Source: a virus. Taken from it: a stretch of DNA of 46,324 nucleotides. Where the stretch lies: IMG/VR virus record IMGVR_UViG_3300036782_000034, positions 1 through 46,324 of that record. The stretch is one strand, 5' to 3'. Positions within the stretch are counted from its first letter, which is position 1. Every line of letters begins with the position of its first letter. The position numbers and the translations under genes are program-made. Of the stretch, positions 246-20,393 are shown piece after piece. Under the pieces are notes generated by a model that saw only the letters and a list, made by a program, of their open reading frames with translations, was not told the origin of the DNA and did not search any database.

Positions 246-274
246 TTACCCCCATGACCATTTCTTGTTATAAT
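246..274 (+). promoter_or_regulatory. Candidate sigma-A promoter with extended -10 (TTACCC-17-TGtTATAAT)
   Basis: TGTTATAAT at 266..274. Weak -35 at 246..251. Lies 37 nt upstream of the 311 ATG. Confidence 0.45.
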
Positions 275-310
275 TTCATGGTCATTTTACTAAAACGGAG
301 GTCTAACACC

Positions 311-11681: not shown

Positions 11682-11870
11682 TTACACCGCTCCTTCCGAA
11701 TGATCGTGTAATAAATCCAAAGCCATTTCTATTAGTACTTCTAGATGTTCAGTTCTACTTGTAATACAAGGAAACGTCCCTTGTTCATTAGTTATGGTCC
11801 CAGGATAACGATCTCTTCTATCTGTAAACGTAGATTCTAAGATTTCAATCGCTTCTTTTAACTGACTCAT
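11682..11870 (-). CDS. Hypothetical protein (62 aa)
   Basis: ORF track. 4-nt overlap with the antirepressor gene. Confidence 0.55.
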   Translation of the reverse strand: MSQLKEAIEILESTFTDRRDRYPGTITNEQGTFPCITSRTEHLEVLIEMALDLLHDHSEGAV

Positions 11871-12595
11871 GCTGTAGCACTTCCTTTATTAAGCAGCTTG
11901 TCTGCTACACGAACCGCATCTTCTAGTTGATTTGTCATTGATAAGTACTGTGGTCTTGTTAGGTCTTTCAAACCATGTTTCTCTTTATATTTGGTAATTC
12001 GTAATTTCAAGTTAGTCTTGTATGCAGTGTTGAATGCATCTGTGAAAGCTCTCCATGCATTCGGAATGGTCATTTTCTCTTGTTGTGCATGTCGTCTAAT
12101 CATTTTGTTTAAGCGTTGCTGCAAGTCACCGATTGTGTCGATTCTGTCAATGTTATCTAATCGGTGATTCACTGTTGTTACTTGCTGTTCTAGATGAACC
12201 ATTCTTTTTTCACTTTCCATATTTTGTTGAGCTAACATATAGATCAACTCAGCTGGTGACTTCGCTTGTTGTTGGCGGAATCGTTTTTCTACTTCAATAA
12301 AGTATTTTCTGATTGCTCTACCAGCTTCATTGTTTTGTACCATCGCAATTTCTTTCGCTGTATCTATGGTTAGTAAATATTCTGTAGATGGTCTACCGTT
12401 TGTTTTACTCAAAAATGAGTAAAAGTCTTCGTTTTGTGCAAACCCATAATTGTTAATCAATCTAGAAATCCAATCGTTGAATCTTGTGTTAACTAACAAT
12501 TGTTCATGAAGTTCTCTTGCGTTTACTACTTTTTCGTTGTTTTCGTTTTGATAAACCGGAAGTATTTCATTTGCGATTACTTTTAATTGATTCAT
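11867..12595 (-). CDS. Phage antirepressor (AntA/ORF6N-like N-terminal domain)
   Basis: N-terminus LKVI..ILPVYQNENNEKVVNARELHEQL...FNDWI...YGF..NEDF is the typical antirepressor N-domain pattern. Second gene of the cro operon. Confidence 0.7.
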   Translation of the reverse strand: MNQLKVIANEILPVYQNENNEKVVNARELHEQLLVNTRFNDWISRLINNYGFAQNEDFYSFLSKTNGRPSTEYLLTIDTAKEIAMVQNNEAGRAIRKYFIEVEKRFRQQQAKSPAELIYMLAQQNMESEKRMVHLEQQVTTVNHRLDNIDRIDTIGDLQQRLNKMIRRHAQQEKMTIPNAWRAFTDAFNTAYKTNLKLRITKYKEKHGLKDLTRPQYLSMTNQLEDAVRVADKLLNKGSATA

Positions 12596-12615: not shown

Positions 12616-12640
12616 TTTTTGAGACGTCTCTTTTTGAGAC
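12616..12640. promoter_or_regulatory. Repeated TTTTTGAGAC boxes around the palindrome gagacgtctc
   Basis: tttttgagac at 12616-12625 and 12631-12640. gagacgtctc is palindromic at 12621-12630. Related boxes occur at 12907-12922 and 12964-12973. Confidence 0.45.
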
Positions 12641-12660
12641 CTGCAAGGTAAAAAAAGAGA

Positions 12661-12858
12661 CTACTTTGTTAATTCATCAATAGTAACTTCATACAAACCA
12701 GCGAGTAAAGACAATCTATGTAAGTTAGGTTCACGCTTTCCTGTTTCTACTTGAGAATACGAGTTCCTGTTCGTGTAACCCATTGTTTCAGCTACTTCAA
12801 CCTGCGTGAAACCTTTAGAAAGTCTTAGCTCCCTAATCTTTTCCGTGTTTAATTTCAT
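12661..12858 (-). CDS. Cro-like XRE-family HTH regulator (65 aa)
   Basis: Classic HTH_3 pattern (LRLSKGFTQVEVAETMGYTNRNSYSQVETGKREP). Divergent from the cI-like gene. Confidence 0.8.
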   Translation of the reverse strand: MKLNTEKIRELRLSKGFTQVEVAETMGYTNRNSYSQVETGKREPNLHRLSLLAGLYEVTIDELTK

Positions 12859-13071
12859 TCGGTATCACCCTTTGTTCGTTTCGTTGATTTGAGTATAACA
12901 TAGGGAGTCTCTTTTTGAGAACCCCTAAATTTAAAAAAATAAAAATTTTTAAAAGTGTTGTCATTTTGAGAACAAATTTGTTAAATTTAAGATATAGGAA
13001 ATGTATTTATATAATTATTTTTAGTGTTAGTAAGTAAAAGTTACTAATAAATATTAAGGGGAATAAAAAGA
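12859..13071. promoter_or_regulatory. Divergent cro / cI-like control region with TTTTGAGA(A/C)C boxes
   Basis: AT-rich 213-bp intergenic region. Boxes gtctctttttgagaac (12907-12922) and ttttgagaac (12964-12973) repeat the 12626-12641 sequence. Confidence 0.6.
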
Positions 13072-13422
13072 ATGGACTACAAATTAATTAGTAGACGTGT
13101 TAAAGAGATAAGGACTGACATACTAAAACTTAGTCAAAGAGAATTCGCTGAAGCGTTAGGAATACAGAGCAGATCTGCTGTTTCTATGTGGGAGAATGAA
13201 GAAAGTACAAAATGCCCATCTAAAAAGATGAGCTTAGAAATCGCGAAGCTTGCTAATGTATCGGTTTCTTATGTATTAGGAGAATCTGACGAAAAGAATC
13301 CTGAATCAGTAGCTAAAGACGACTTAGAACAAGTAATGATAGATATACGTTCTAAAAACCCAGACAAACAAAAAGAACTAATTGAGATGATAAAACAACT
13401 AGTTAAAATATCAGGCGATTGA
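13072..13422 (+). CDS. cI-like XRE-family repressor (116 aa)
   Basis: N-terminal HTH_3 (LKLSQREFAEALGIQSRSAVSMWENEES). Divergent from the cro-like gene. AAGGGGAATAAAAAGA precedes the ATG. Confidence 0.8.
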   Translation: MDYKLISRRVKEIRTDILKLSQREFAEALGIQSRSAVSMWENEESTKCPSKKMSLEIAKLANVSVSYVLGESDEKNPESVAKDDLEQVMIDIRSKNPDKQKELIEMIKQLVKISGD

Positions 13423-13458
13423 TAGCATCAAATGCTACCGATCGCCTCTTTTATTTTT
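13413..13458 (+). terminator. Intrinsic terminator of the cI-like gene
   Basis: 16-nt arms 13413-13428 / 13432-13447 (one G-U, one mismatch) followed by cttttattttt. Confidence 0.6.
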
Positions 13459-13565
13459 AATAGCATCTCATAAGACTCTGCATCCCCATTTTGAGCCGCA
13501 TTAAAGATACCTTGTAAGTTATTTTCAATTTCTACCAATTCTTTCTCGATGTTAGTTTGTTCCAT
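13428..13565 (-). CDS. Small ORF downstream of the peptide gene, 45 aa (MEQTNIEKELVEIENNLQGIFNAAQNGDAESYEMLLKIKEAIGSI). Positional analog of aimX.
   Basis: Codon-by-codon hand translation. GGAGGA RBS 8 nt upstream. Ends 5 nt from the converging cI-like stop. Below the track cutoff. Confidence 0.45.
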   Translation of the reverse strand: MEQTNIEKELVEIENNLQGIFNAAQNGDAESYEMLLKIKEAIGSI

Positions 13566-13596
13566 CCCTAAATCCTCCAATATTCTCATAGTAGTT

Positions 13597-13612
13597 TGTG
13601 AATTAATTCACA
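13597..13612. promoter_or_regulatory. Perfect 16-bp palindrome TGTGAATTAATTCACA, candidate receptor (AimR-like) operator
   Basis: Read directly. Lies between the peptide-gene terminator and the 45-aa ORF, over a region with only weak -35/-10 matches. Confidence 0.5.
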
Positions 13613-13653
13613 TTCATTGAACTTTACTTCGTTTCTGATAAAAAGTTCAATAA

Positions 13654-13701
13654 CCCCAAAAATGAAGAATGACGTCTTCTGCAAGAGAAGACGTCATTCT
13701 T
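13654..13701 (-). terminator. Strong intrinsic terminator after the peptide gene
   Basis: 16-bp perfect stem (13665-13680 / 13686-13701), loop gcaag. On minus it is followed by CAUUUUUGGGG. Confidence 0.75.
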
Positions 13702-13715
13702 ATATATCTATTAAA

Positions 13716-13865
13716 TTAAATTCCTGTCCCAGGATCAGACATAAACATAATTGTATTTTGTGGTTCCTTAGCAACTTGTTTCGGTTGCTCTTTGTTGTCA
13801 GCAGGAGCGAATAAAAAACCGCCAGCTAACGCTACGCTTGTGATTAGCGATAGTACTTTTTTCAT
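13716..13865 (-). CDS. aimP: Secreted pro-peptide of the RRNPP/arbitrium-like system, 49 aa (MKKVLSLITSVALAGGFLFAPADNKEQPKQVAKEPQNTIMFMSDPGTGI)
   Basis: Codon-by-codon hand translation. The ATG lies 6 nt after the receptor stop. N-terminus is MKK + hydrophobic core + small residues (signal-peptide-like), followed by a polar linker and short C-terminal tail. Below the 60-aa track cutoff. Confidence 0.7.
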   Translation of the reverse strand: MKKVLSLITSVALAGGFLFAPADNKEQPKQVAKEPQNTIMFMSDPGTGI

Positions 13866-13871
13866 TTAGCA

Positions 13872-15029
13872 TCACCCAACTAAATTATAGCATTTTTGGG
13901 ACATTATGCCTAGGTTTTTCTTCGCCAAATACGAATAAAAAATATCGGAAGATCGCTCGAATAAATCCAAAGCATCGCTTAATATTTGTGGGTCATTCCC
14001 CTTCGCTATTCCTAGATAAGTTAAGCCAAAAGCACCTAGCTTCCCTTTAGTTTTCAATACCTCTTCTAAAATACTTATTGCTTTTTTTGCATTGCCTTTT
14101 TGTATTTCTAAATAAGCCTTTTCGACTTCATCCTTAGGTTCGATATTGTTCAGATCTACCTTCCAATGTATCTTCAAGAAGTCGACCGTATTCAATATCA
14201 TATTTTTCCGCTTCATCATTTGATTACCAGGACCATTCACTATAATGCTAGCGGCAGAGTTTAAATAACCTAACGATTTGTGATAATCCGTAAAAATATA
14301 CGATTCTCCTAGTACACCATACGCTGTTGCTTTAAAGATAGGGAATAACATGTCTGAGTTATCATCATTGATTATTCCATGGCATATACTTCTTAGTTTT
14401 TGGATTTCATTACATGTTAACAATCCATAAATAGTAGCTTCTTGTATTTTAAATTTTAAAAAGGCCTTAGCATAATCGTCTTCTAACTCTTCGACCTTCT
14501 CATGTAATTCTTCAGAAAGTCGAATCATCGACTTATAGTTTTTCTGGTCATACCTAATATGAAGAAGAACTATACCCTTGAGAATCTCAAATTCAACATT
14601 TTTTGACTTAATACCCTCTACTTTTTCTTTATAAACTTTTAATAAGCTATCTCCAGATAAATCACCTTTGTATCGCAAATATATTAATCTGCATACCGTT
14701 TCCCAATCATGTTTAATTGTTGATTCATTTAACAGCTCCGCTACAGTGTCTAATTCCCCGTGTGCTAGTAAATAATATACGGCTACCTTTTTATTACCCT
14801 GTCTCTTCAAGACGCTAGAATATTCGCGACAAAAACTCCTTCTCGCATTAATATCATCGGGATAAACTTCCTTTAAAATCACTCCGTATTTGTTAAAAAC
14901 GAGTTGATGTTTTCCTTTTAAGAATCTTGATAATGTCGCTCCATCAATATCTATCCTCTTCACGAGTTGGGTTCTATTGATATTCTTACTATTCATATCA
15001 TCAGATATTTTACTTAACACTTTTTGCAT
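13872..15029 (-). CDS. aimR: RRNPP-family peptide receptor/transcription regulator, AimR-like (385 aa, N-terminal HTH + TPR-like helical repeats)
   Basis: Start set at the ATG at 15029 (AAGGGGAG 7 nt upstream; the track start is a TTG). HTH-like INRTQLVKRIDIDGATLSRFLKG, then about 300 aa of helical repeat sequence. Size, architecture and the immediately downstream pro-peptide ORF match AimR-AimP organisation. Confidence 0.7.
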   Translation of the reverse strand: MQKVLSKISDDMNSKNINRTQLVKRIDIDGATLSRFLKGKHQLVFNKYGVILKEVYPDDINARRSFCREYSSVLKRQGNKKVAVYYLLAHGELDTVAELLNESTIKHDWETVCRLIYLRYKGDLSGDSLLKVYKEKVEGIKSKNVEFEILKGIVLLHIRYDQKNYKSMIRLSEELHEKVEELEDDYAKAFLKFKIQEATIYGLLTCNEIQKLRSICHGIINDDNSDMLFPIFKATAYGVLGESYIFTDYHKSLGYLNSAASIIVNGPGNQMMKRKNMILNTVDFLKIHWKVDLNNIEPKDEVEKAYLEIQKGNAKKAISILEEVLKTKGKLGAFGLTYLGIAKGNDPQILSDALDLFERSSDIFYSYLAKKNLGIMSQKCYNLVG

Positions 15030-15118
15030 AACTTTGCTCCCCTTTTTTCGGAACAAAAGACACGTTATACCCAAATTTTAACTTTTACAGGAAAACGCGT
15101 CACTACATTCAAGAGATG

Positions 15119-15127
15119 TGTTATAAT
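15119..15127 (+). promoter_or_regulatory. Extended -10 promoter element TGtTATAAT, divergent from the receptor gene
   Basis: tgttataat at 15119..15127. The same 9-mer occurs at 266..274. Confidence 0.45.
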
Positions 15128-15134
15128 TTTATGT

Positions 15135-15226
15135 AAGACTTGCAGTAAGTGTTTTCCCTACGGCATTAGGGAAAGCGGTACTATGGTGTTCGTTGCACCT
15201 TAGTACACGCTGTGAGTCTTTTTTAC
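15135..15226 (+). ncRNA. Candidate ~90-nt structured small RNA (three-helix junction ending in a U-tract)
   Basis: Outer helix 15135-15145 / 15210-15220 (two G-U pairs on plus only). Inner hairpins 15153-15159/15168-15174 and 15178-15188/15196-15206. Followed by tttttt. Starts about 8 nt after the -10. Confidence 0.4.
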
Positions 15227-15352
15227 GTCCGTTTTTAGTTATTATCATTTTAACACAAATTTCCCAAAATTCAGTCGTAGAGTTATCAGACTATTATTGA
15301 GAAAGTTGAGAAACCGCTGTGTAACAACGTTTCTCGAATTAAAATAATTTGA

Positions 15353-15368
15353 ATATGCAATTATGCAT
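15353..15368. promoter_or_regulatory. Operator-like inverted repeat ATATGCA-at-TATGCAT (TATGCA motif family)
   Basis: Read directly. Related palindromes at 15388..15397 and 16174..16191. Confidence 0.4.
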
Positions 15369-15387
15369 TTAGACGTTTGAAGAACCC

Positions 15388-15397
15388 ATATGCATAT
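15388..15397. promoter_or_regulatory. 10-bp palindrome ATATGCATAT (TATGCA motif family)
   Basis: Read directly. Confidence 0.4.
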
Positions 15398-15524
15398 TTT
15401 ACCACTAATTCAACCAAAAGAGAACATAGGTTCTTATATTTATTTTAGTTGAGATTAGAAATATATCAAAATCTTATAAATGACAATACATCTATCATTT
15501 GTAGTATATCGATATTTCTATAAC

Positions 15525-16463: not shown

Positions 16464-17552
16464 ATGGGGAATAAAAACAAAGAGAAAAAACCTAGCGAGT
16501 CGCAACTTGCCCAACAAGCGATAGCGAATAAATATCAAACTTCACCTATTATCGTAGAAGCTAAGTTTAGTTCAACTGATCGTGGCTATGCCGCTGTAGA
16601 TAAAGATCACATTCAACTTTTCAAGTTCAATAAAGGGACACAAGACGTTTCTAGCGTCGGTACATACAACTTTGATGAATATGACACTGTTACTATTGAT
16701 AAATTCGCTGTTAAAGCTGTTATGGAGTTTAAAGGGATGAATAAAACGTTCGTATTTATGCCAATTCAACAAACAAACGATATTGAACGTTTAATCAAAA
16801 CGAACACTTCTATTCAAATCGATAAAGTAGAACGTAAATTACATAACAAAATATTAGGGTTCCGATCAAATACAAAGTGGAAAATGATTGTAGCAAGTGC
16901 TGTATATCTATTTATTGTAGTTGCTGCTGTTAGCGGGTTTATAGATAAGAAAGAAGAAAAGGTTGCCAGTTCACAAGTTTCTCAAACTAACAATGAACCA
17001 GCAAAAAAATCATCAGCATTAGATCATGCACCAAAAGAAACAGCCAGTAAGCCTAAAGATACAGCTCTAAAAATGGATGATGGCCGTAATGTAAACATGG
17101 AGATTTACAACAAATACAACGTGAAATATCCGTCTCTCGATCCAACTACAAAGGATAAGGATTCAATGGAACATTTTGAAAAGATGGCTGAGAAGTATAG
17201 CATGTCTGTACCAGAATACATTTCAAAAGAAAAAGAAATCGTTGCTGCTAATGTTCAAAAAGAAAAAGAGGCAAAACAAAAAGCTGATGAGGATAACAAG
17301 CAGCGTGTCGGAGCTAGTAAACCAACTATCTCAAAAGACGAGTTTGACAGAATCGAAAATGGTATGACATACGATCAAGTAAAAGAAATTATCGATAGTG
17401 ATGGCGAGGTTATGTCTGAATCTGGAGATAAAGGAACTGAATACTACACAATCATGTACATGTGGAAAGGTGAAGGCTCACCAGGAGCTAATGCTAATTT
17501 CATGTTCCAAGGTGGTAAGCTGAACAATAAAGCCCAGTTCGGATTGAAATAA
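16464..17552 (+). CDS. Single-pass membrane protein: cytoplasmic N-domain, TM helix (WKMIVASAVYLFIVVAAVSGFI), extracellular K/E-rich linker and a C-terminal small beta-rich domain (DUF3862-like)
   Basis: GGAGGAG RBS 10 nt upstream. One clear TM segment. The C-terminal pattern ISKDEFDRIENGMTYDQVKEIIDSDGEV...YMWKGEG resembles DUF3862 lipoprotein domains (by eye). Confidence 0.7.
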   Translation: MGNKNKEKKPSESQLAQQAIANKYQTSPIIVEAKFSSTDRGYAAVDKDHIQLFKFNKGTQDVSSVGTYNFDEYDTVTIDKFAVKAVMEFKGMNKTFVFMPIQQTNDIERLIKTNTSIQIDKVERKLHNKILGFRSNTKWKMIVASAVYLFIVVAAVSGFIDKKEEKVASSQVSQTNNEPAKKSSALDHAPKETASKPKDTALKMDDGRNVNMEIYNKYNVKYPSLDPTTKDKDSMEHFEKMAEKYSMSVPEYISKEKEIVAANVQKEKEAKQKADEDNKQRVGASKPTISKDEFDRIENGMTYDQVKEIIDSDGEVMSESGDKGTEYYTIMYMWKGEGSPGANANFMFQGGKLNNKAQFGLK

Positions 17553-17779: not shown

Positions 17780-17815
17780 ATAACCAATGCTTTAAAAGGA
17801 CAGTCATTTAATTTT
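17780..17815. repeat. Direct repeat copy 2 (ataaccaatgctttaaaaggacagtcatttaatttt)
   Basis: See copy 1. Overlaps the rep stop codon. Confidence 0.7.
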
Positions 17816-19130
17816 ATATTTGTTTTTTTAATTGGCTAACCCTAGCAGGTGTTATACCCATTATTTTAGCTATCTCTTTACCTTTTAATCTTGGATTATT
17901 TTCTACTATCTCTTTTAACTGTTTAATTTTTTCATCTTTTTCATTAGTTTTAGACGTTTGATGTTCTTCCCAACTGACTGATCCACGTGCTTTTCGTTTT
18001 CTTAATTTATCTCTACGTTTAATTTCTTCAGAATCAATCAACGTATCCATAATTTCAAGCTCTGTTTCTGTCAGTTTAATGTCTAACTTCTTAAAAATCG
18101 TCTCTGTTTTCATTGGTTTTATTAAACCGTAGGGTAATCCTTGTTTACTGAAGTTGTTAGCCGAAAACGCATCGAAAAACGCAATTGCATCTTTGTACGC
18201 ATCTTTTGCCGTCCGTTCTATTTCTTTTCGTTTTTGTGGTTCTTTGAACTTATTGTTTAATTGAAACGTCATTTCTAACGTCGCTGTTTGATTTTTAACG
18301 ATTAAAGCAGTGGTGAAGGCATAAATGTATGTCATGTCGTGTCTGTGCTCTATTTCGCCGTTTCTGAGCATTACAATCTTCTCTAGATCTGATTTTCTTT
18401 TTGTATTCAAACTATAAAGGTTCATTACACCTTTTTGAGACGGTAATGTTGAAATTGACCCCTTTTTACGTGTCGCTGTGCGTTTTGGTTGTCTCTTTTT
18501 TTCTAAAGGTGGCACATAGTCATACAATTCCTGTAATTCGTGCTCGCGCCTTGTCCAAATTTCAAGACCTATTTGCTTTCCGGTTTTGCTATGAGTTGTA
18601 TATGGCATGCGCAAAACCCTTGAAAGGTCACTACATGATCCGTCGGCTCCTAATGGCATTAACATTTTTATAAAATGATTCGTTATGTATTGAGATAAAA
18701 ACGCCATTTGTGGAGCAGCTCCGCCTTGTACAGTGTAAATCAGTTGCATTCCTCTTCCGTACATGACAAGGTTTGGACATGGTAACAGTCCTTCAGCAAT
18801 ACAATCTTGCAAATTCTGAATCACGTATTCTTTTGAGATATCCAACTTGTAAAAATCTAAATCTACTCCAATGTTTCTTATTTGCTTTAAATCCGTCGCT
18901 TTCCTACTTCCGAATGTGAAACTATTCAGAGACAGATAAAAGTCCTTATTTGAGGGATTAGACATATTTGAAAGAGTTTTAACGTCGTTCGTGCCTATCC
19001 ATAATTGTTTTTTATCGTTGCCGCTTAAATCTAAAACAGCTATATATCCACTTTTTTTATGTTCTGATAGATAGCATTCATGCCAATCATCAATAAACGT
19101 TTCCTGCGACTTCCGTATCGCTAAAGACAT
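17814..19130 (-). CDS. Plasmid-type replication initiator, archaeo-eukaryotic-primase (Prim-Pol)-like N-domain with a C-terminal HTH
   Basis: 438 aa. IGVDLDF (DxD), GRGMQLIY and LRMPYTTHSKTGK resemble AEP motifs I-III. C-terminal KGKEIAKIMGITPARVSQLKK is HTH-like. AGGAGG RBS. Confidence 0.6.
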   Translation of the reverse strand: MSLAIRKSQETFIDDWHECYLSEHKKSGYIAVLDLSGNDKKQLWIGTNDVKTLSNMSNPSNKDFYLSLNSFTFGSRKATDLKQIRNIGVDLDFYKLDISKEYVIQNLQDCIAEGLLPCPNLVMYGRGMQLIYTVQGGAAPQMAFLSQYITNHFIKMLMPLGADGSCSDLSRVLRMPYTTHSKTGKQIGLEIWTRREHELQELYDYVPPLEKKRQPKRTATRKKGSISTLPSQKGVMNLYSLNTKRKSDLEKIVMLRNGEIEHRHDMTYIYAFTTALIVKNQTATLEMTFQLNNKFKEPQKRKEIERTAKDAYKDAIAFFDAFSANNFSKQGLPYGLIKPMKTETIFKKLDIKLTETELEIMDTLIDSEEIKRRDKLRKRKARGSVSWEEHQTSKTNEKDEKIKQLKEIVENNPRLKGKEIAKIMGITPARVSQLKKQI

Positions 19131-19598: not shown

Positions 19599-20393
19599 AT
19601 GGCCTACAAATTAGCGTTTGTGCAGAACAAAGGTGGCGTTTTGAAGACTTCTATGGCTGTAAATACAGCTGGATTGTTCGCTAAACAAGGGGAAAAAGTA
19701 TTGATTGTTGATGCTGACGAACAAGGAAACGTGTTACTATCATTTGGTAAAAATCCGGATGAATACAAACTAACATTGTATGATGTTCTTGTTGATTATG
19801 TATCACCAAAAGCAGCAATCATTAATGTTTATGAAAATATTGATGTGCTGCCGTCTAATACCGATATGGGTTTTTTAGATTTTGACATTTTACCCCATCA
19901 AGATAAGTATATTAATCCATTCCTTTTATTAAAGGTCGCTCTAATGTCTATCGAAGAACATTATGATGTTATTATTTTTGATAGTCCGCCTAGTTCCGGA
20001 TTAATTCAAAGTAACGTTATTTGCTGTACGGACAATATCATTATTCCTTTCCAACCAGAAAGATATAATGTTAGATCTTTAATTAAGTTGATCGATGTAC
20101 TTAAAGGTTTCCGCGAACAAAACAATCCCGATCTGAAAATTGTAGGTGTAGCATCTACACTTGTACAAAAAAACACGGTTTTACATCAAAGTGTTATGCA
20201 AGATGCAAAAGAATTTTGTGAATCAGAAGATGTACACTATTTCGATACGTTTATACCTAAGACTATTCAATTTGCTAATGCAATCGCTAATGAAGAATTG
20301 CCGTTAACTTTAGCAAAGAAAAATAATGAATTTGCCTTGTATTATAAAAATCTATTTAAGGAGATGAATGAGCGTGAGTCGCAAAATGTCTAA
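19599..20393 (+). CDS. parA: ParA-family partition ATPase (deviant Walker A)
   Basis: NKGGVLKTS (KGGxxKT), DADEQGN and IIFDSPPS motifs. GGAGG RBS. Confidence 0.9.
   Translation: MAYKLAFVQNKGGVLKTSMAVNTAGLFAKQGEKVLIVDADEQGNVLLSFGKNPDEYKLTLYDVLVDYVSPKAAIINVYENIDVLPSNTDMGFLDFDILPHQDKYINPFLLLKVALMSIEEHYDVIIFDSPPSSGLIQSNVICCTDNIIIPFQPERYNVRSLIKLIDVLKGFREQNNPDLKIVGVASTLVQKNTVLHQSVMQDAKEFCESEDVHYFDTFIPKTIQFANAIANEELPLTLAKKNNEFALYYKNLFKEMNERESQNV

Follow-up and report, generated by a model that had tools for sequence, protein, structure and literature searches.

The window analysed here, the full 46,324-nt record IMGVR_UViG_3300036782_000034 to which all positions refer, very probably contains a complete "extended arbitrium" lysis-lysogeny module (aimR-aimP-aimX / aimC / aimL) of a Bacillus cereus-group phage-plasmid. 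This assignment is supported by family hidden Markov models (HMMs), a fold search, synteny, and published experiments with related AimC/AimL cassettes, and the same lines of evidence bear out the proposal of an earlier note that an arbitrium-like AimR/AimP/aimX module lies beside a cI/cro-like switch. The open reading frames (ORFs), terminator, palindrome, spacings, and co-orientation described in that note were all found in place, as was the gap of 5 nt between the module end and the stop of the converging cI-like gene (13428 versus 13422). The comparison set comprised 32 related loci, taken from genomes and IMG/VR, plus the loci of Waukesha92, PfNC7401, B83, and BMBtp14. All 32 related loci and the four named ones share the order aimR, aimP, terminator, small ORF, converging short helix-turn-helix (HTH) gene, and divergent small HTH gene, and a five-gene layout is reported for ~75% of ~9300 catalogued AimR loci (Kabel et al., bioRxiv 10.1101/2025.11.23.689978). 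The system is an ordinary member of this known class, in which only the peptide code and some details of the regulatory DNA are new; as an arbitrium system it adds little, thousands having been catalogued and the mechanism of this architecture having been solved in close relatives. Its parts, with the basis of each call in brackets, are as follows:

13872..15029, minus strand: aimR, 385-aa arbitrium peptide receptor with HTH and tetratricopeptide repeats (TPR) (HMMs, AlphaFold2, Foldseek)
13884..13892, minus strand: candidate aimP promoter, extended -10 TGcTATAAT, within the aimR 3' end (promoter scan)
13716..13865, minus strand: aimP, 49-aa predicted secreted pro-peptide, C-terminus ...IMFMSDPGTGI (PHROG 2682, Sec-type signal)
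13656..13701, minus strand: intrinsic terminator between aimP and aimX (16-bp stem plus T5)
13616..13651, no strand: wide inverted repeat ATTGAAC-N22-GTTCAAT, best candidate for the AimR site (uniqueness, position, clade-dependence)
13597..13612, no strand: compact palindrome TGTGAA-TTAA-TTCACA, putative second operator or hairpin (uniqueness, conservation)
13428..13565, minus strand: aimX, 45-aa small ORF, predicted AimC antirepressor, with ribosome-binding site (RBS) GGAGGA at 13573..13578 (PHROG 7267)
13072..13422, plus strand: aimC, 116-aa HTH repressor, C-terminal domain helical, autocleavage domain absent (Pfam HTH_3)
12859..13071, no strand: control region between the divergent aimC and aimL, bearing TCTTTTTGAGAAC-type repeats as candidate AimC/AimL operators (repeat search)
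12661..12858, minus strand: aimL, 65-aa cro-like HTH protein, first gene of the early lytic operon (Pfam HTH_3, 6.7e-14)

The 385-aa product of aimR, whose ATG has GGGGAG just upstream, scored 306.8 bits against the NCBIfam equivalog NF038310 ("AimR family lysis-lysogeny pheromone receptor"; cutoff 70), covering positions 1-365 of the 365 in the model, and was also recovered by Pfam PF22871 (E = 2.7e-35; 122.4 bits versus a cutoff of 26.7) and PHROG 1728 (E = 1.9e-95). A longer, TTG-start version of the ORF is listed, and the homologues are of 385 aa. Proteins with 91-94% identity in B. thuringiensis, B. toyonensis, B. cereus, B. mycoides, and B. paranthracis carry the NCBI name AimR, and the closest AimR from an isolated phage is 30% identical. 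Since plain sequence searches of the PDB reach no AimR, a fold search was needed. The AlphaFold2 model, built with 19 homologues, showed a mean predicted local distance difference test value of 81.4 and a predicted template-modelling (TM) score of 0.72, its C-terminal 25 residues being of low confidence. When this model was compared with the PDB by Foldseek, ranks 1-16 were all AimR chains (from Katmira33, phi3T, SPbeta, and the ATCC13952 phage), with TM-scores of 0.56-0.77 over the full length and E-values from 1e-6 to 1.6e-4, while the next RRNPP proteins (Rap and PlcR) did not exceed 0.44. Because profile scores and modelled fold agree, membership of the AimR family is considered established on these two grounds. 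The profile and structure comparison with AimR/RRNPP folds had been named beforehand as the check on a predicted 385-aa receptor with an HTH and helical repeats, and both the AimR models and the AimR fold were matched.

The aimP gene begins 6 nt past the aimR stop and is found at the equivalent position in every related locus (32/32). Its 49-aa product matches PHROG 2682 (E = 1.5e-18) and, in agreement with the signal-peptide-like N-terminus noticed earlier, starts with MKK, a 16-residue hydrophobic core, and APA|D, features that by inspection are of Sec type, the peak value in a 9-aa Kyte-Doolittle window being 2.2; as AimP lacks cysteine, it would not be a lipoprotein. A peptide code different from the GA/GG of the SPbeta group had also been foreseen, and the tail is indeed SDPGTGI, in agreement with the DPG-type clades of B. 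cereus-group phages. The motif [DG]PGTG[IV] is kept in loci with AimRs 57-99% identical, and the clade at ~40% ends in DPGTGSG. On the contrary, the four residues preceding the tail vary: they are MFMS in the window, LYAE, MLMY, MYMS, MKMS, FSNV, YSEM, or LKMS elsewhere, and YKMV in the 40% clade, differing even between AimRs that are >90% identical. Since the hexamer DPGTGI could not tell these systems apart, the active peptide probably has more than six residues or loses some at its C-terminus, and in the nearer relatives we infer that signal specificity is encoded by the four residues preceding [DG]PGTG[IV], MFMS in the window. Such a conserved tail combined with a variable MFMS-type segment would imply a mature signal unlike the canonical hexamer.

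The DNA between aimP and aimX closely recalls the antitermination region of the SPbeta group. The candidate aimP promoter (scan score 10/12, with the TG) belongs to a TGnTATAAT motif that is kept upstream of aimP in all clades having the compact palindrome, including loci where it falls outside the aimR frame, and that was not seen in B83/BMBtp14. The terminator is formed by a 16-bp stem and a 5-nt loop (13665..13701) followed by CATTTTT, folds as RNA with -23 kcal/mol (z = -8.5 versus shuffles), and is conserved among related loci with compensatory changes (GACGTC to GACATC or GATGTC), being the equivalent of the terminator TT overridden by AimR in phi3T/SPbeta. AimR of those phages is described as an antiterminator: without AimR on its site shortly after the terminator, the transcript from the aimP promoter halts there, and the distance from terminator to AimR site is critical (PMC10769878). 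The SPbeta site is made up of two inverted 6-bp boxes lying 25 bp apart, which fits HTH helices held 75-90 Å from each other (PMC6458997). Between the terminator and the compact palindrome of the window there is a wide inverted repeat, ATTGAACTTT-N16-AAAGTTCAAT, which is absent from the earlier note and has no second copy in the window (chance expectation, 0.01 matches). It begins 13 nt past the terminator stem and spans 36 bp, to be compared with 16 nt and 37 bp for the SPbeta operator ATCACT-N25-AGTGAT. Its boxes shift with the AimR clade, reading ATTGAAC in the window, TTCGAAG in Waukesha92, ATTGGTA... in the 40% clade, AAGTTT in B83, and TTTAGT in BMBtp14, in step with changes in the recognition helix. 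Considering its SPbeta-like position beside the terminator and the variation of its boxes with AimR clade, the wide inverted repeat is the most likely AimR site, an assignment that we regard as probable. Simple activation of aimX by AimR, as put forward earlier, gives way to the antitermination of the aimP transcript described in the literature.

Regarding the output genes, the 45-aa AimX is aligned by PHROG 7267 over its full length (4.9e-18; 1-45/45), and its size, strand, and place fit those published for the AimX of extended modules (29-80 aa). An alternative upstream ATG at 13589 would give 53 aa; homologues begin at the RBS-proximal ATG. AimX belongs to the same family as that of Waukesha92, with 31% identity. 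The aimC gene converges on aimX, leaving 5 nt between the stops, and diverges from aimL; in its Pfam scan HTH_3 was the sole match over cutoff and no S24 peptidase was found, and its 116 aa agree with the published description, that of a short repressor with a single HTH and 80-140 aa. AimC is 81% identical to its Waukesha92 counterpart, 96% in the N-terminal DNA-binding domain and 54% in the C-terminal domain, so that the C-terminal domain of AimC (54%) and AimX (31%) have diverged together; AimL is 94% identical to that of Waukesha92 and 98.5% to that of PfNC7401. Across the 32 loci at least six AimX types occur, each with one AimC type, and the AimX type tracks AimC rather than AimR, physical linkage being an alternative cause of this association; in one locus (L015) the HTH domain of AimC is swapped, the C-terminal domain and AimX being kept. 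According to Kabel et al. 2025 (10.1101/2025.11.23.689978), AimX proteins of 29-80 aa bind AimC's C-terminal oligomerization domain, block AimC oligomerization, and free the promoter of the cro-like aimL, a role demonstrated by genetics and biochemistry in phi106, phiW23, Wbeta, BMBtp14, and a Waukesha92-like phage-plasmid; the antisense RNA formerly proposed had a negligible effect. The 45-aa ORF with its GGAGGA is where the earlier note put it, and the literature describes the product of such ORFs as a protein antirepressor of the cI-like AimC.

Taken as a working scheme, aimP would be transcribed from the extended -10 promoter inside the aimR 3' end to yield a Sec-secreted pro-peptide, which, as established in SPbeta-group systems, would be processed outside the cell and re-imported. 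By analogy with phi3T/SPbeta, the aimP transcript would end at 13656..13701 unless peptide-free AimR sits just downstream as antiterminator, likeliest on ATTGAAC-N22-GTTCAAT, and read-through past the terminator would allow expression of the 45-aa AimX. As shown for homologous cassettes, including the Waukesha92 type, AimX would then bind the oligomerization domain at the AimC C-terminus and remove AimC from the aimL promoter, turning on the early lytic operon (aimL, Ant-like, Sak, DnaD-like, DnaB). Accumulation of the AimP peptide and its binding to the TPR pocket of AimR would end AimX production, so that AimC would hold and the phage would enter or keep lysogeny.

Two different readings of the locus as a whole were considered in relation to this scheme. 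An HTH/TPR receptor with an adjoining secreted peptide is the common layout of RRNPP quorum-sensing pairs, and Rap-Phr can be phage-borne, hence the locus might be a generic pair of the Rap-Phr, NprR-NprX, or PlcR-PapR type, carried as phage cargo without control of lysis-lysogeny. We find this highly improbable: AimR-specific models score far over their cutoffs with no Rap, NprR, or PlcR matches, AimR structures top the fold search with TM-scores up to 0.77 against at most 0.44 for Rap and PlcR, and the module sits between a repressor/cro pair and a leader common to experimentally studied arbitrium phages. Accepting an arbitrium module, its output could still be mainly an antisense RNA, the aimX transcript entering the converging aimC and lowering the repressor, with the 45-aa ORF being incidental. 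Such a model was proposed for loci of this kind by Stokar-Avihail et al. 2019, as cited in later literature, and it would suit a gene that ends 5 nt from the aimC stop and whose next terminator-like hairpin on the strand lies inside aimC (13214..13233). Nevertheless, the small ORF has a strong RBS in every locus despite at least six sequence types and belongs to a PHROG protein family; moreover, start-to-stop and recoded alleles of phi106 and phiW23 aimX show that the protein, and not an antisense RNA, carries the function, and AimC repression is lifted when AimX of Waukesha92, Wbeta, or BMBtp14 is supplied in trans. An antisense output is consequently quite unlikely, and a protein antirepressor is preferred.

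Several observations nonetheless weigh against the assignment as an extended arbitrium module or fit it poorly. Neither phmmer with the 385-aa protein nor hmmsearch with its family profile found any AimR among PDB sequences, and identity to structurally known AimRs is only 15-18%. The signal peptide of AimP was called by inspection alone, and its C-terminus, SDPGTGI, fails the canonical hexapeptide motif XXXXG[G/A] by which the SPbeta group is defined; according to the paper on B83, the related DPG-type peptide of clade 7 is likewise off this motif. The arms of the wide inverted repeat are perfectly complementary over 10-14 bp, in one clade each arm contains an insertion of 4 nt that mirrors the other, and as RNA the repeat folds with -11.8 kcal/mol (z = -3.4), a picture closer to a hairpin than to a pair of protein half-sites. 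The strictly conserved palindrome in the aimX leader is left unexplained by the model. Finally, a SinI/SinR-like mimic should show homology of AimX to the C-terminal domain of AimC, and this homology is weak: cognate pairs gave z = -0.8 to 1.5, not significant; type-A AimX aligned full-length with the C-terminal domain of type-B AimC (z = 5.7-6.4); and hhalign gave P = 0.0017 with a probability of 15%, a weak signal. As the cognate pairs are not significant and the profile-profile signal is weak, mimicry by descent is unproven, and neither the PDB profile search with AimX, which yielded nothing relevant and no SinI/SinR match, nor its Pfam scan, without a SinI match, adds to it.

The compact palindrome deserves separate consideration. 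TGTGAATTAATTCACA is an exact palindrome with a single occurrence in the window (chance expectation, 0.01 matches), and TGTGAA-N3/4-TTCACA occurs as one copy per related locus, B83 and BMBtp14 lacking it. Whatever the AimX/AimC cassette type, and for AimRs of 27-100% identity, its arms hardly vary, the spacer having 3 or 4 nt. A scan of viral contigs returned mostly unrelated matches, the context being shared only by AimR-encoding loci. The palindrome occupies the slot of the LexA box in phi106-type systems; upstream of aimX no LexA box in the phi106 style was found, the only near-match, at 13619..13630 with one mismatch, belonging to the wide inverted repeat. As an operator of AimC/AimL (cI/Cro) it was rejected, since the aimC-aimL region bears TCTTTTTGAGAAC-type repeats instead; it is unique in the window, and its near-matches are at chance level. 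The SPbeta GenBank record has a compact palindrome, TTGTAATGCATTACAA, annotated ~115 nt downstream of the AimR operator and before yopM (SPBc2/SPbeta locus 273..288), possibly a counterpart of the one in the window.

The earlier note took 13597..13612 for the AimR site, which would make AimR a conventional activator of a separate aimX promoter and the wide repeat a mere RNA or DNA hairpin. A perfect palindrome with one occurrence in the window and one in each related locus, followed in most loci 3 nt later by a -10-like TAYWAT hexamer, is compatible with this proposal, as are the invariance of several residues of the AimR recognition helix in the family, the hairpin-like character of the wide repeat (10-14-bp arms, mirrored indel, -11.8 kcal/mol, z = -3.4), and the precedent of PlcR, an RRNPP regulator that binds a 16-bp palindrome. 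However, the arms are near-invariant over AimRs only 27-40% identical and with differing recognition helices (RF, KF, NF, SI, KN), while the wide repeat tracks clade; the palindrome would lie at about -31 to -16 of the putative promoter, a position for a repressor rather than an activator; the solved AimR dimers keep their recognition helices 75-90 Å apart, with boxes 25 bp apart; and it is the wide repeat that holds the SPbeta operator position beside the terminator. The palindrome is therefore probably not the AimR site, and its role as AimR operator appears unlikely. Independence from AimR clade and AimC type would instead be expected for a host factor, and aTGTGAATTAATTCACAA agrees with the Rex consensus TTGTGAAW4TTCACAA at 17/18 positions, A/T spacer included. 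With a functional Rex in B. cereus, and a palindrome placed where phi106-type systems have a LexA box, it is a candidate operator of this host redox repressor, in which case aimX would also depend on NADH/NAD+, as an input added to arbitrium. Against it, around half of the related loci, Waukesha92 and PfNC7401 among them, have a 3-nt spacer, so that the fixed 4-nt spacer is not kept, and several of the 4-nt spacers contain G/C (TCGA, GCGA), which lowers Rex affinity; binding of S. aureus Rex is strongly impaired by changes in spacer length. Thus, among factors for the palindrome, AimR takes a minor share of our expectation and Rex, whose involvement we hold to be improbable, a smaller one, the remainder going to another factor or to a role at the RNA level.

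Comparison with known systems places the module between several groups. The closest switch is that of Waukesha92/PfNC7401, extended arbitrium systems of the B. cereus group that share with the window the gene order, the phage-plasmid backbone, the AimX family (...AIGS[INF] tail), the TGTGAA-N3/4-TTCACA palindrome with the aimX RBS leader, and the LexA-boxed promoter with a structured leader upstream of aimR. Their AimRs, in contrast, are only 27-30% identical to that of the window, and the peptide tails are SEPGGGGW (Waukesha92) and VGPGGGMG (PfNC7401) versus SDPGTGI. Relative to the Waukesha92 type, the sequences describe a different communication cassette plugged into the same switch. On either side of the cassette formed by aimR, aimP, and the clade-specific wide repeat there is a non-coding block, the aimR leader at one end and the palindrome with the aimX RBS at the other, both common to AimR clades only 27-40% identical. 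That such blocks are shared across distant AimR clades suggests the exchange of communication cassettes by homologous recombination. The locus is a clean natural module swap, with a distant AimR/AimP pair (27% identity, other peptide tail) on a closely related AimC/AimL switch of Waukesha92 type and junctions in the two conserved non-coding blocks.

SPbeta/phi3T (Erez 2017; Gallego del Sol 2019; Zamora-Caballero 2024) has the same AimR fold and an AimP encoded directly downstream, and in both cases the terminator is followed within 13-16 nt by two inverted boxes ~22-25 bp apart, a likeness in sequence anatomy only; the antitermination logic is common to those phages and to the proposal made here. 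The mature SPbeta/phi3T peptide is the C-terminal XXXXGA hexamer, whereas in the window family it is the residues ahead of a conserved tail that vary. The outputs also differ: phi3T AimX is a MazE-like inhibitor of the host MazF, SPbeta AimX is possibly an RNA, the master repressor is YopR, and there is no aimC/aimL pair. In the clade-1 extended systems of the B. subtilis group, phi106 and phiW23, the same five genes are present, with a small AimX antirepressor and a short AimC without autocleavage domain, and a second operator, in the window a putative one, lies between the AimR site and aimX. This operator is a LexA box in phi106/phiW23, while the window has the TGTGAA palindrome there and a LexA-type box ~400 nt upstream of aimR; their peptides are hexamers (DPPVGM, EIIVGA). 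B83/BMBtp14 (clade 7) and RBClin15 (clade 9) resemble the window in their peptides, with a Met/hydrophobic-rich segment followed by [DEG]PG-G/T-G-x (...YYMADPGGSVG in B83, ...MMVDPGGGGW in RBClin15), as well as in the phage-plasmid lifestyle and the LexA-type box upstream of aimR. They depart from it in their AimRs (24-27% identical), in an AimC of 142-144 aa, in other AimC and AimX families, and in having no TGTGAA palindrome. Outside arbitrium, SinI/SinR of Bacillus provides a parallel to AimX/AimC, a small helical protein neutralizing an XRE-type HTH repressor via its C-terminal oligomerization domain; Kabel et al. 2025 draw this analogy and report the solved C-terminal domain of AimC as a new fold.

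Upstream of aimR, a second set of conserved elements was located:

15422..15433, no strand: LexA-type (Cheo) box GAACCTATGTTC (exact GAACN4GTTC)
15032..15404, minus strand: conserved aimR leader of ~370 nt (cross-clade leader alignment)
15396..15404, minus strand: extended -10 TGgTAAAAT (beside the LexA-type box)
15355..15368, minus strand: 14-bp palindrome ATGCATAATTGCAT (conserved in most related leaders)
15247..15255, minus strand: second extended -10 (leader alignment)
15135..15220, minus strand: three-way-junction RNA (folding)
15059..15101, minus strand: terminator-like hairpin (folding)
15032..15058, minus strand: RBS-sequestering hairpin, pairing UUUUGUUCC with the RBS (GGAGCAAAG) (folding)

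The Bacillus LexA consensus is CGAAC-N4-GTTCG, and the exact core GAACN4GTTC has two sites in the 46-kb window, one of them being that at 15422..15433. An exact box is found in 25/33 unique related loci, in all but one at 340-445 nt upstream of aimR; among those re-examined of the eight loci without it, four have a box with one mismatch. The distant AimR clades of Waukesha92, PfNC7401, B83, and BMBtp14 carry it as well, and it is always followed, 6-20 nt downstream, by a conserved extended -10 (TGTGGTAAAAT) directed at aimR. Considering this conservation, an SOS input is probably contributed by the LexA-boxed promoter ~400 nt upstream of aimR. Kabel et al. 2025 describe the DNA-damage route as unknown for extended systems without a LexA site at aimX, and LexA control of aimR transcription would be a simple candidate for it.

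The leader between this promoter and aimR is far better conserved than the aimR coding sequence. In the window its minimum free energy is -55.2 kcal/mol (z = -3.44), and most of 19 homologous leaders, when folded singly, give the same three-helix junction and RBS hairpin. Compensatory changes and covariation were detected in helix P2 by RNAalifold on MAFFT alignments, and this helix alone was recovered because P1 and P3 are misaligned. Neither the aimX leader nor the aimR leader matched a credible Rfam family, whether the thresholds were those of gathering or permissive ones, and the aimR leader RNA is best regarded as a lead only. The 14-bp palindrome ATGCATAATTGCAT, a short way past the LexA-boxed promoter, may serve the divergent XRE protein as operator.

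A wider reading, which we regard as doubtful when its three parts are taken jointly, is that the arbitrium output in this phage group behaves as a three-input gate rather than as a pure peptide sensor. Peptide density would enter through AimR antitermination at the wide inverted repeat; a factor other than AimR/AimC, possibly Rex, would act on the clade-independent TGTGAA-N3/4-TTCACA operator; and expression of aimR itself would be gated by the LexA-boxed promoter together with the three-way-junction leader RNA and its terminator-like and RBS-sequestering hairpins. If true, a single small antirepressor gene would be the point at which the phage integrates phage density, DNA damage, and the metabolic or redox state of the host. 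Both the structured aimR leader and the invariant palindrome are well-delimited regulatory elements to which a factor could be assigned.

The divergent XRE gene mentioned above encodes an RstR/XRE-like HTH protein (15480, or ATG 15537, to 15881, plus strand), points away from aimR, and lies outside the five genes of the published extended module; it is found in the same place in the four loci checked, namely, Waukesha92 (gp38), PfNC7401 ("prorepressor"), B83 (gp37), and BMBtp14. At the other end of the module, the hairpin within aimC (13214..13233, minus strand) would stop aimX read-through ~200 nt into the aimC antisense. The repeats of the aimC-aimL control region form a family (D1) with copies at 12910..12922 and 12961..12973 and more at 12616..12641, unrelated to the TGTGAA palindrome. 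Downstream of aimL follow Ant-like, Sak, DnaD-like, and DnaB genes, the Ant-like one (11867..12595, minus strand; PHROG 373/5817) lying directly downstream of aimL and being a second, conventional anti-repressor besides AimX.

Concerning the replicon, two genes of the flanks are of particular relevance:

17814..19130, minus strand: replication protein (PHROG 9432)
19599..20393, plus strand: ParA-like partition protein (ORF scan of flanks)

The flanking genes include the replication protein, ParA, Ant-like, Sak, DnaD-like, DnaB, and an endolysin, and no integrase was found among the flanking ORFs scanned. The replication protein and ParA, together with the early-operon genes, place the module on a phage-plasmid, and from its gene content the element looks extrachromosomal; in agreement, close AimR homologues are carried on contigs of ~52-58 kb. 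Megablast of the locus against isolated phages gave a single match of 130 nt and nothing longer. Between the XRE gene and the plasmid replication gene, a 362-aa protein (16464..17552, plus strand) is encoded that belongs to PHROG 37750, of unknown function, and has a BLIP-like C-terminal region; it may be a moron expressed in lysogeny.

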